Part shown: positions 59,398 through 62,300 of the stretch, in pieces
Layout of the letters: every line of letters begins with the position of its first letter
Position numbering within the stretch: the first letter of the stretch is position 1
Assembly: GCF_000027125.1 (NCBI RefSeq)
Contig: NC_017626.1
DNA from: Escherichia coli 042
Lineage (GTDB): Bacteria; Pseudomonadota; Gammaproteobacteria; Enterobacterales; Enterobacteriaceae
Length of the DNA stretch: 64,000 nt
Strand: one strand, 5' to 3'
Notes under the pieces: generated by a model
Told to the model about the DNA's origin: nothing
Seen by the model: the letters and a program-made list of their open reading frames with translations, nothing else
The model's database searches: none
Translations under genes and position numbers: made by a program

Positions 59398-62300
59398 ATG
59401 AACAAAATTTTTAAAGTTATCTGGAATCCGGCAACAGGCAGTTACACCGTTGCCAGTGAAACGGCAAAAAGCCGTGGCAAGAAATCCGGGCGCAGTAAGC
59501 TGTTAATTTCTGCCCTGGTTGCTGGGGGAATGTTGTCGTCGTTTGGGGTACAGGCTCAGGCAGGAAGGGACAACGGTCAGGGCGTCAATTATGGCCAGGG
59601 AACAGGAACAGGCTGGGTTGCTATCGGTGAAGATGCAAAAGCAAATAGTTTTACAGACACCGGGGGTGGCTCCAGCACCGCAGTAGGTTATCACTCAACT
59701 GCTGACGGAAGGTGGTCAACAGCCCTCGGTGCTAAGACCCATTCGCTTGGCGAAGCATCAGTGGCGTTAGGGATTAACACTACCTCAGCAGGTGAGCGAA
59801 GCCTCGCTATAGGTGCATCGGCAACGTCAACGGGTGGATTTTCAATCGCACTTGGTCGTTATGCGAACTCAGTAGGTGAATTTTCTATTGCACAAGGGGA
59901 TCACGCAGAGACTGGTGCTGATGACGCCATCGCATTTGGACGTGAAAGCAAGGCCTTAGGAATTATGAGTATCGCCCTCGGAGCCACGGCTAATGCGTCG
60001 AAAGAATATGCAATGGCGCTGGGTGCAAGTAGCGCCGCATCTGCAGCTAACGCGATTGCAGTAGGCCGCAACAGTGCTGCAGCTGGCGTAGACAGCCTCG
60101 CATTCGGCAGACAATCCGCCGCCAGCGCCGCAAACGCGATTGCTATGGGTGCAGAGAGCAAAGCTGCTGAAAATGCGACGGCAGTTGGTACTAACGCGGA
60201 GGCAAATGGACTTAATAGTATCGCGTTGGGCTCCGGCAGTATTGCAGATGTCGACAACACGATTGCTCTGGGCAATCAAAGTCAGGCAGTAGCGGCTGGC
60301 GCAATTGCCATCGGTCAAGGGAATAAAGCTGACGGCGCAAATGCTATCGCGCTGGGTAATGGTAGTATTACAGGTGGTGTAAATGCTATTGCTCTTGGAC
60401 AAGGCAGTTATGCCGGTTTAGAAAATGGCACTGCAATTGGTGCTCAAGCCAGTGCTCAGGGGAAAAATTCAGTTGCTCTGGGTGCTGGTTCTGTAGCGAC
60501 TGACGCGGATACTGTTTCTGTGGGTAACACAACAGCTCAGCGACAAATTGTCAATATGGCAGCAGGTGATATCAGCACTACCAGTACTGATGCCATCAAT
60601 GGATCACAGCTTTATGCTATCAGTAAGTCAGTAGCGGACAATCTTGGTGGGGGGGCTACCGTCAATGCGCAAGGCGTCGTTACTTCCCCAAATTACAGGC
60701 TGAAAAGTGGTATTTTCGGCACTGTTGGCGACGCCTTAACGGGCCTGGACAATAATACGTTACAATGGGACTCCCTTAAAAAGGCATATAGTGCGGCACA
60801 TGGTACAGATACTACCAGTACCATCACCAACGTTAAAGACGGCGCTATTTCTGATACCAGTAAGGATGCGGTTAACGGTTCTCAGCTGAAAACCACCAAC
60901 GATAACGTAGCGACCAATACTGCCAATATCACCACCAACACTAACAGTATCAATACCCTGACGGATTCCGTTGGCGACCTTAAAGACGATGCCCTGCTGT
61001 GGAATGGCACCGCGTTCAGCGCCGCGCACGGCACCGAAGCCACCAGCAAAATCACCAACGTCAAAGACGGTGACCTGACGGCTGGCAGCACCGACGCGGT
61101 TAACGGCTCTCAGCTCAAAACCACTAACGATAATGTGGCAACCAACACCACCAACATCACCAACCTGACGGATTCCGTTGGCGACCTTAAAGACGATGCC
61201 CTGCTGTGGAATGGCACCGCGTTCAGCGCCGCGCACGGTACCGATGCCACCAGCAAAATCACCAACGTCAAAGACGGTGACCTGACGGCTGGTAGCACTG
61301 ACGCGGTAAACGGCTCTCAGCTGAAAACCACTAACGATGCCGTGGCAGCCAACACCACCAATATCGCCACGAATACCACCAACATCACCAACCTGACTGA
61401 CGCAGTTGACAGCCTCGGTGACGATTCCCTGCTGTGGAACGCTACAGCGGGGGCATTCAGCGCCGCACACGGTACTGATGCCACCAGCAAAATCACCAAC
61501 GTCACCGCTGGCGACCTGACGGCTGGCAGCACCGACGCGGTTAACGGCTCTCAGCTCAAAACCACTAACGATGCCGTGGCAGCCAACACCACCAATATCG
61601 CCACGAACACCACCAACATCACCAACCTGACTGACGCTGTTGACAGCCTCGGTGACGATTCCCTGCTGTGGAACGCTACTGCGGGGGCATTCAGCGCCGC
61701 GCACGGTACTGATGCCACCAGCAAAATCACTAACGTCAAAGACGGTGACCTGACGGCTGGCAGCACTGACGCGGTTAACGGCTCTCAGCTCAAAACCACT
61801 AACGATGCCGTGGCAGCCAACACCACCAATATCGCCACGAACACCACCAACATCACCAACCTGACTGACGCTGTTGACAGTCTCGGTGACGATTCCCTGC
61901 TGTGGAACGCTACGGCGGGTGCATTCAGTGCCAAACACGGCACCAACGGTACTGACAGCAAAATCACCAACTTACTGGCAGGCACTGTATCCTCTGATAG
62001 CACTGACGCTATTAATGGCTCACAACTTTATGGCTTAGCTGATTCATTTACGTCATACCTTGGCGGTGGTGCTGATATCAGCGATGCGGGTGTATTAACC
62101 GGGCCAACCTACACTATTGGTGGTACTGATTACAATAACGTCGGTGATGCTCTGGCTGCCATTAACACGTCATTTAGCACATCACTCGGTGACGCCCTAC
62201 TCTGGGATGCGACCGCCAAGGGCGGTGACGGTGCGTTTAGCGCCGGTCGCGGGACAGATAACACAGCCAGCATCATTACTAATGTTGCAGACGGTGCAAT

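Follow-up and report, generated by a model that had tools for sequence, protein, structure and literature searches.

Gain and loss of whole modules is a known phenomenon in BadA, Cha and many further surface proteins, and the stalk array described here is an ordinary example of such repeat-number polymorphism. BadA of Bartonella henselae is a trimeric autotransporter in which the number of neck/stalk domains varies by isolate, a variation put down to recombination or slipped-strand mispairing, which only long reads could resolve (PMC8859334). In the Haemophilus cryptic genospecies, head exposure and adhesive activity of the trimeric autotransporter Cha change with how many tandem peptide repeats it carries (Sheets & St Geme 2011, as related in PMC9704523). 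Periscope Proteins carry tandem repeats of >50 aa with high DNA identity, strain-variable in number, in a rod-like stalk; by definition, the class comprises single-chain, monomeric arrays whose domains fold independently, and trimeric autotransporters are excluded from it (PMC9704523). Closest to the present locus are SadA of Salmonella enterica, which is highly conserved within that species (PMC7247748) and of which fragments have been solved (2YNZ, 2YO2, 2YO3 and 3ZMF, with 2YNZ as the reference structure for DALL; domain definitions in PMC7247746), and the adhesins UpaG (UPEC CFT073 type) and EhaG (EHEC type), whose passenger domains vary extensively between the two according to the account of Totsika 2012 given in PMC7247748.

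The window analysed here is a stretch of 64,000 nucleotides from E. coli 042, in which an uninterrupted plus-strand frame runs from an ATG at 59398 to the window end. The features to which we refer below are as follows.

58671..59354, plus strand: gene of a SadB/YajI-family (DUF3251) lipoprotein, 227 aa, from the ORF and the RefSeq annotation at the orthologous position
59398..64000, plus strand: 5' part of a trimeric autotransporter adhesin gene, 4603 nt, 1534 codons, cut by the window end
60784..61011, plus strand: unit 1, 228 nt, 76 aa, with a DALL/HANS-like connector, a DAVNGSQL neck and then a coiled-coil segment; the most diverged unit
60913..60952, plus strand: 21-nt (one heptad) sub-repeat in the coiled-coil part of unit 1 (TRF period 21)
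61012..61218, plus strand: unit 2, 207 nt, 69 aa, one heptad (21 nt) and two codons shorter than the 78-aa units
61219..61452, plus strand: unit 3, 234 nt, 78 aa, identical in protein sequence to unit 5
61453..61686, plus strand: unit 4, 234 nt, 78 aa, two residues apart from units 3 and 5 (KD to TA)
61687..61920, plus strand: unit 5, 234 nt, 78 aa, identical to unit 4 along a tract of 113 nt
61921..62823, plus strand: three longer modules of 312, 300 and 291 nt (104, 100 and 97 aa), of the connector-neck family with an FGG-like insert
60760..62003, minus strand: antisense ORFs, artefacts; one of 392 aa (60760-61938) and a ladder of five of 62-72 aa

The gene encodes a type Vc trimeric autotransporter adhesin. 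Pfam identified an extended signal peptide at its N-terminus (ESPR, PF13018, aa 1-48, E = 4.9e-16), more than 10 YadA_head repeats at aa 90-377 and seven YadA_stalk matches (PF05662) within the 600 aa spanning the array, one per unit, and a DAVNGSQL neck motif is readable in every one of the five units. The window stops short of the membrane anchor, which is present in the full-length copy of the closest genome, EcPF15 (locus L001; YadA_anchor, PF03895, E = 1.5e-19); these matches bear out the description of the region as an adhesin stalk. The EcPF15 gene, annotated as a "YadA-like family protein", is 5232 nt long (1743 aa) and 99.3% identical to the window gene across 4603 nt, with all differences confined to two clusters at 59872-60125 and 63160-63990. 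An NCBIfam scan of the full protein returned only generic models of trimeric autotransporter adhesins, all far under their cut-offs. By homology to the solved trimeric SadA fragments, the product probably forms a homotrimeric fibre on the outer membrane.

Gene order at the locus is mtlA-mtlD-mtlR-yibT-yibL-sadB-like-adhesin-lldP: the upstream ORFs of 637, 195, 120 and 227 aa correspond by annotation in the matching genomes to mtlA, mtlR, yibL and the DUF3251/SadB-like gene, and lldP lies downstream of the adhesin gene in those genomes, as for UpaG, EhaG and SadA. The 227-aa lipoprotein, which had no match in NCBIfam, is presumably a biogenesis helper of the adhesin, a role described for SadB in PMC7247746. 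The window gene is thus a positional orthologue of upaG, ehaG and sadA, and it represents a third allele class at the upaG/ehaG locus. Its protein is 73% identical overall to RefSeq "UpaG" and 60% to RefSeq "EhaG" (56-65% in the head regions), while over the C-terminal 503 aa it reaches 95% identity with either type; we therefore rejected its assignment as a named UpaG or EhaG allele, the passenger identity being too low and the RefSeq name being "YadA-like family protein". UpaG and EhaG share the chromosomal locus, the architecture and modules of 71-94 aa at the same position, but differ in their units, which measure 78, 78, 78, 71 and 71 aa in the UpaG type and 94, 85 and 78 aa in the EhaG type. 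SadA likewise has a SadB-like lipoprotein gene upstream and the same set of Ylhead, neck, coiled coil, FGG, DALL and HANS elements, whereas the E. coli allele carries a variable-number run of near-identical DALL-neck-coiled-coil modules.

A repeat search placed the five tandem units at 60784, 61012, 61219, 61453 and 61687, spaced by 228, 207, 234 and 234 nt, over a span of about 1137 nt (60784-61920). TRF likewise reported a period of 207 with 2.0 copies (94% matches) and a period of 234 with 3.4 copies (90% matches, score 1286), in agreement with the periods given in the earlier note. Every unit starts in frame with the plus-strand ORF, and the units encode 76, 69, 78, 78 and 78 aa without a stop. 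The earlier description of all five as near-identical stood for units 3-5 (93.6-95.3% nucleotide identity, or 94-95% rounded), but not for unit 2, which is 86.5-87.9% (~87%) identical to units 3-5 over ungapped columns and 77% when a 27-nt indel is counted, nor for unit 1, at 74-85% to the other units; the array thus consists of three near-identical copies and two older, more diverged ones. Units 3 and 5 differ at 11 nucleotides, all of them third codon positions, and 33 of the 37 differences among units 3-5 fall at codon position 3 of the plus frame. Each unit bears 11-15 distinguishing sites, mostly synonymous, and exact direct repeats reach 113 nt at most, whereas in 200 codon-shuffled controls the longest averaged 11.6 nt, with a maximum of 18 nt. 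The array belongs to a larger family of 10 neck-containing modules within the gene, among them the three longer modules at 61921..62823, which are older than the five units, match the FGG domain of SadA 2YO2 and are constant in number in every allele examined. Equivalents of the heptad sub-repeat of unit 1 occur at 61585-61624 and 61819-61858.

At the protein level, one unit matched the SadA DALL construct 2YNZ (E = 3.5e-17, 37/82 residues identical, 45%), 3ZMF (E = 1.3e-14) and 2YO2 (E = 1.5e-14). This DALL-neck homology shows, as far as comparison with solved structures can predict, that each unit is one stalk module made of a coiled-coil segment, a DALL connector and a neck. A unit of 69-78 residues comprises a coiled coil, an alpha-to-beta connector of DALL/HANS type and, to start the coiled coil afresh, a DAVNGSQL neck.

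To place the array among strains, we retrieved 13 loci and took the number of units from the gene translations, which makes the counts a sample and not a census; megablast splits arrays of differing copy number, so that its match listings give no direct distribution. Units were registered on the HANS motif, a register on the neck motif having mislabelled the last unit and the C-terminal neck pair. Among complete genomes, the count was two units in L005, three in L004, four in L012, five in L001, L003, L006 and L007, six in L002 and L010, and seven in L011, with strain RIVM_C037166 carrying two and strain TUM2330 six. In 120 database homologues, flanks 98-99.8% identical to the query enclose arrays of five to nine units, and homologue lengths of 1743, 1821, 1899 and 1977 aa rise in 78-aa steps; some of the database copy-number variants come from short-read contigs. 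Unit number is therefore polymorphic between strains, from 2 to about 9, and unit 1 is kept in first position across most alleles examined. A phase-variable on/off locus was rejected because the unit lengths of 207, 228 and 234 nt are all multiples of 3, and all variant alleles examined are in frame.

Two pairs of genes, all from complete genomes, differ solely by whole units. The L005 and L010 genes show 0 mismatches besides one in-frame deletion of 909 nt (207 + 3 × 234) in L005, with the crossover being a single clean switch between two misaligned units within a 14-nt interval of the neck-coding segment; their flanks differ at 1/1400 and 0/1400 positions, in ungapped comparisons of which only near-zero pairs were interpreted, as the counts for L001 and L002 are inflated where an IS element or an indel puts the sequences out of register. 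The L012 and L003 genes show 0 mismatches besides one 234-nt unit and have identical flanks, and in the L003 array two adjacent 234-nt units are 100% identical. The two-unit junction of L005 recurs without a single difference in 17 complete genomes deposited by several submitters. Together with the ladder of two to nine units on otherwise near-identical genes, these data strongly support the earlier proposal that recombination between copies can change stalk length.

We consider it highly probable that the array is real, that its assembly is correct and that it consists of five stalk modules in a row, polymorphic in number, in the adhesin fibre of an upaG/ehaG locus allele; its existence, structure-level identity and polymorphism are established. 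The same note had flagged the region as a likely misassembly hotspot, on the reading that short-read assembly may have collapsed or expanded the copies. Tandem repeats of 234 nt at 94-95% identity can indeed mislead de Bruijn assemblers, and the databases hold many copy numbers, some from the short-read contigs mentioned above. However, the 1801-nt segment made up of the array and its flanks recurs without a single difference in the complete genome EcPF15, and in 142 complete genomes the array aligns colinearly and without gaps, at 99% identity or more and with no change in length; moreover, every unit carries private synonymous markers, the 113-nt longest exact repeat is shorter than a standard 150-nt read, and all units are in frame and stop-free. 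The suspicion is not supported for the window, where misassembly is unlikely and an artefactual five-copy array very improbable, the copy number of the source strain being supported solely by identity to other assemblies. Alleles of the L003 type would be genuinely hard for short reads because of their two identical adjacent units. The periodic minus-strand ORFs, found exactly where the earlier note had listed them (60882-61091, 61110-61298, 61317-61532, 61551-61766 and 61785-62003), could in principle encode real repeat proteins or peptides, as they run without a stop for 62-392 codons and the units differ by just 2 aa in the ladder frame, which gives it a conserved look. This apparent conservation arises because the wobble positions of the ladder frame coincide with those of the plus frame, and a stop interrupts the ladder frame once in every unit; in the 392-aa frame, 11 inter-unit nucleotide differences cause 12 aa changes compared with 0 in the plus frame, which is the frame with Pfam and PDB homologues. 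Consistent with this codon-position evidence, no minus-strand gene is annotated at the array in any RefSeq genome examined, and real antisense products have practically no chance of being the explanation.

A further reading treats the array as ancient and fixed, with unit-number differences reflecting only old allele classes spread by horizontal transfer and no ongoing intragenic gain or loss. Units 3-5 show 4-6% synonymous divergence with almost no amino-acid change, the five-unit arrangement is common to the 142 genomes, the five-unit window and six-unit L002 haplotypes differ at 74 further sites, and the clustering of differences between the window and EcPF15 is typical of imported segments. 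The divergence of units 3-5 and the stability of the five-unit arrangement indicate that turnover is slow on the scale of clonal lineages, the array not being hypermutable, and the 74 sites indicate that part of the copy-number diversity is due to alleles that are old and have been exchanged horizontally, not to recent events. The two zero-mismatch pairs with identical or near-identical flanks nevertheless contradict a fixed array, and these pairs, the clean 909-nt crossover and the exact 234-nt tandem duplicate in L003 indicate recent intragenic events. We therefore regard an array without ongoing gain and loss as very unlikely, and retain the reading of a genuine array of modules that turn over slowly.

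As the units follow one another in tandem and in frame, with DNA identities of 85-100%, misaligned homologous recombination or replication slippage between them would gain or lose whole units, by a route that may be either RecA-dependent unequal crossover or slippage. Gain or loss of one unit would lengthen or shorten the trimeric fibre by one self-contained module, predicted at ~6 nm, and since each unit is an in-frame module of this kind, neither frame nor fold would be disturbed. The distance from the N-terminal head to the cell surface would, as a consequence of whole-unit gain and loss, be a polymorphic trait in E. coli. BadA resembles this adhesin in being a trimeric autotransporter whose neck/stalk array is highly repetitive and varies in domain number, but it is much longer, at about 3000 aa, its repeats are other modules and its island also holds pseudogene copies; at the E. 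coli locus, no such donors were seen. Cha is likewise a trimeric autotransporter with a variable number of tandem repeats, but its repeats are short peptides, whereas the window units are composite structural modules of 69-78 aa. With 78-aa units, 0-2 aa differences among units 3-5 and 2-9 units across strains, the array has the repeat properties of Periscope Proteins. Membership of that class was rejected, as its definition excludes trimeric autotransporters; the resemblance is one of the way of working and not of membership. Fibre length may have adaptive value. A tentative extension, which we find rather doubtful, is that unit number is an adaptively tuned, periscope-like length control matched to the O-antigen or capsule thickness of each lineage, with the head exposed or hidden accordingly, and that the few amino-acid changes and 4-6% synonymous divergence reflect selection for interchangeable modules with limited recombination.

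The locus adds a clean, base-pair-resolved case in which the stalk of a trimeric autotransporter gains and loses whole modules. Annotators should disregard the antisense ORFs at the array. Copy number is usable as a lineage marker, as in the two-unit deletion common to the 17 complete genomes, and the length polymorphism bears on typing schemes that use gene length or protein clustering. UpaG/EhaG is a vaccine-candidate adhesin family, and the length polymorphism of its stalk also bears on antigen design.

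The plus-strand frame beginning with the ATG at 59398 has 1534 open codons and runs up to the window end, and a repeat search of the window recovered one repeat family in five copies with start-to-start spacings of 228, 207, 234 and 234 nt, which bore out both the periods and the five in-frame tandem copies described in the earlier note.

Features of the adhesin locus
58671-59354, plus strand: SadB-YajI family (DUF3251) lipoprotein gene, 227 aa, lying 43 nt before the adhesin gene (annotation in matching genomes)
From 60784, plus strand: array unit 1, 76 codons, in frame
From 61012, plus strand: array unit 2, 69 codons, in frame
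From 61219, plus strand: array unit 3, 78 codons, in frame
From 61453, plus strand: array unit 4, 78 codons, in frame
From 61687, plus strand: array unit 5, 78 codons, in frame
60913-60952, 61585-61624 and 61819-61858: 21-nt sub-repeats, one coiled-coil heptad each
60760-61938, minus strand: ORF of 392 codons (ORF listing)

Tandem Repeats Finder (TRF) gave the array two periods: 207, with 2.0 copies and 94% matches, and 234, with 3.4 copies, 90% matches and a score of 1286. Exact direct repeats in the array region reached 113 nt (copies at 61534 and 61768); when its codons were shuffled 200 times, the longest averaged 11.6 nt and never passed 18 nt, so the array is real and far above chance. 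The copies had been called near-identical, which held for units 3-5 (93.6-95.3% pairwise nucleotide identity) but not for unit 2 (86.5-87.9% to units 3-5 with gapped columns left out, and 27 nt shorter) or unit 1 (74-85% to the other units). The coiled-coil part of the unit shows a heptad pattern in the protein, and TRF found the 21-nt sub-repeat nested in units 1, 4 and 5; since one heptad plus two residues is exactly what separates the 69- and 78-residue unit types, slippage seems to act at the heptad scale too. A second, older set of repeats, related to the array units as members of one family, lies directly downstream (61921-62823), with three longer modules of 104, 100 and 97 aa (77-79% nucleotide identity) comprising connector, neck, FGG-like insert (matching 2YO2) and coiled coil; unlike the array, their number was constant at three in 13 of 13 alleles examined.

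The plus strand is the coding strand: 33 of the 37 pairwise nucleotide differences among units 3-5 fell at codon position 3 of this frame, units 3 and 5 encode identical peptides despite 11 nucleotide differences, and unit 4 differs from them by two residues. The ladder of minus-strand ORFs (60882-61091, 61110-61298, 61317-61532, 61551-61766 and 61785-62003) was present exactly as reported, and its description as artefactual was upheld: in the frame of the 392-codon ORF, which explains the left edge of 60760 drawn earlier, the same 11 differences produce 12 amino-acid changes. The ladder frame is interrupted by one stop in every unit, and its apparent conservation comes only from sharing wobble positions with the plus frame. 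The minus-strand ORFs arise as a side effect of coding sequence that is repetitive and poor in stops.

The best E. coli chromosome matches to the adhesin gene covered all 4603 nt in one ungapped piece at 99.3% identity. In strain EcPF15 the gene at this locus (5232 nt, 1743 aa, annotated as YadA-like family protein) lies between mtlA-mtlD-mtlR-yibT-yibL-DUF3251 and lldP-lldR-lldD, and the window carries the same upstream ORFs; since genes annotated upaG or ehaG occupy the same position in other genomes, this is the upaG/ehaG locus. Pfam searches placed an ESPR signal peptide and many YadA_head repeats within residues 1-400, seven YadA_stalk (neck) motifs, one per unit, in 600 residues around the array, and a YadA_anchor at the C-terminus of a full-length copy, confirming the adhesin stalk. 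Compared with a UpaG-type allele the window protein was 73% identical, and with an EhaG-type allele 60% (heads 56-65%, last 503 residues 95%); it is therefore a third allele class of the locus, not a strict UpaG or EhaG. Any megablast match to the gene was seen in only 4156-4158 of 5426 E. coli complete genomes, most being the EhaG-type allele at about 80% identity; in the remaining ~1270 the locus is presumably deleted, truncated or very divergent. SadB is a periplasmic helper needed for display of SadA, the Salmonella enterica homologue (PMC7247746). An NCBIfam scan of the 227-aa upstream lipoprotein matched no model, and its gene is cut by an ISEc12 insertion in CFSAN061768 and carries an internal stop in FDAARGOS_1303.

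A 114-aa query of ~1.5 units, beginning at the unit 3 neck and ending within the unit 4 coiled coil, matched the solved SadA fragments 2YNZ (E = 3.5e-17, 37/82 residues identical) and 3ZMF and 2YO2 (E about 1e-14), with the aligned region starting in and returning to coiled coil. The published domain table classes DALL, whose reference structure is 2YNZ, and HANS as alpha-to-beta connectors and the neck as a beta-to-alpha connector (PMC7247746). Each unit is accordingly a self-contained stalk module of coiled coil, connector and neck.

The array varies in length between strains by whole units. The best 120 database homologues measured 1742/1743, 1820-1823, 1828-1830, 1890, 1898/1899, 1902-1909, 1942, 1977 and 1987 aa, and mapping of HANS-like motifs placed all of this difference in the array: the window architecture of 76-69-78-78-78 was followed by forms with one, two or three extra 78-residue units, and in some a 78-residue unit replaced the 69-residue unit or the latter was duplicated beside a 78-residue unit. 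The 463 residues before the array were typically 99-99.8% identical to the query (lower in P0004, a 5'-truncated entry), and the 901 residues from the array end to the C-terminus were 98-99% identical.

Unit number in the RefSeq complete genomes examined
2 units: RIVM_C037166, 1518 aa
3 units: JNEC-KY177, 1594 aa
4 units: IR53017, 1672 aa
5 units: EcPF15, WP5-S18-ESBL-08, FDAARGOS_1371 and 98200, 1743-1753 aa
6 units: CFSAN061768 and TUM2330, 1821 aa
7 units: GPEC874, 1909 aa

The earlier proposal that recombination between copies can change stalk length was strongly supported by a range of 2-9 units and by two gene pairs that differ only by one whole-unit indel. The RIVM_C037166 gene equals that of TUM2330 at every base except one 909-nt deletion (207 + 3x234), with 1/1400 and 0/1400 flanking positions different; the sequence crosses once and cleanly from unit 2 into unit 6, inside 14 nt of neck-coding sequence (GGTTAACGGCTCTCAGCT|G) that lie in a stretch of ~100 nt with 96% identity. 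The IR53017 gene equals that of WP5-S18-ESBL-08, in whose array two adjacent units are 100% identical, at every base except one 234-nt unit, with identical flanks. The hybrid unit left by the 909-nt deletion recurred at 100% identity in 17 complete genomes deposited by several submitters, each with a single such unit, which makes it an inherited allele as opposed to an error of one assembler. Many of these genomes come from one Dutch surveillance set and others from elsewhere; the 2-unit allele (RIVM_C037166, NZ_CP086625.1; hits H161-H177) would serve as a simple lineage marker. The genes of ECO_2_R (NZ_CP071002.1, H45) and MS 198-1 (NZ_CP146687.1, H103) are the same allele (99.5-99.8% identity) but 1 nt longer and split in RefSeq into an ESPR domain-containing protein and a YadA family autotransporter adhesin, reflecting either true pseudogenization by frameshift or a sequencing error in a homopolymer.

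For the window itself, the suspicion of a misassembly hotspot was not sustained. The 1801 nt of array and flanks were 100% identical in EcPF15 and at least 99% identical, ungapped and equal in length in 142 complete genomes, and every unit has private markers, with exact repeats of at most 113 nt, so that ordinary 150-nt paired reads should place the units. For alleles whose neighbouring units are identical the warning is reasonable; it has also been given for BadA (PMC8859334) and for repeat proteins generally (PMC9704523). The window and EcPF15 differ at 33 nucleotides, all outside 60126-63159, in two clusters (59872-60125 and 63160-63990) with none in the 3 kb between, array included, which suggests imported or mosaic segments in two head-domain regions.

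The array is a tandem, in-frame run of homologous units, the differences between its alleles are of whole units, and at least two recent events were single clean crossovers between misaligned units. Such events could come from either of two routes that the data do not separate, unequal homologous recombination between sister chromosomes and slippage during replication of direct repeats. Synonymous divergence of 4-6% between units, together with a five-unit form that is stable across the 142 genomes, indicates a modest turnover rate and strong purifying selection on module sequence. Given 74 further sites that differ between 5- and 6-unit haplotypes, and the two-cluster pattern between the window and EcPF15, part of the copy-number diversity is also carried by old haplotypes exchanged between lineages. 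A phase-variable on/off locus was rejected, every unit length being a multiple of 3.

Published work already covers this gene family, the modular grammar of its proteins and the extensive variation of passengers at upaG/ehaG (PMC7247748, PMC7247746), and repeat-number variation in a trimeric autotransporter adhesin (TAA) stalk is likewise established for BadA (PMC8859334) and for Cha (PMC9704523). The array functions like the stalk of Periscope Proteins, but membership was rejected because that class comprises monomeric single-chain rods and explicitly excludes TAAs (PMC9704523). Our search, outside which lay two primary papers (SadA/UpaG/EhaG fibre structure and EhaG/UpaG characterisation), found no explicit published account of alleles with 2-9 units at this locus in E. 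coli. The length variation is thus already known in kind and was correctly seen in the earlier note; added here are base-pair-resolved deletion and duplication events and evidence against misassembly of the window. SadA spans about 108 nm over 1461 residues, on average about 0.074 nm per residue (PMC7247746), at which each 78-residue unit would add roughly 6 nm between the N-terminal head and the cell, and the 2-9 unit range would span about 40 nm of fibre. SadA function is masked by LPS and fimbriae (PMC7247748), and adhesion is modulated by Cha repeat number (PMC9704523). One possibility is that length variation is adaptive and may act through exposure of the head relative to O-antigen or capsule.
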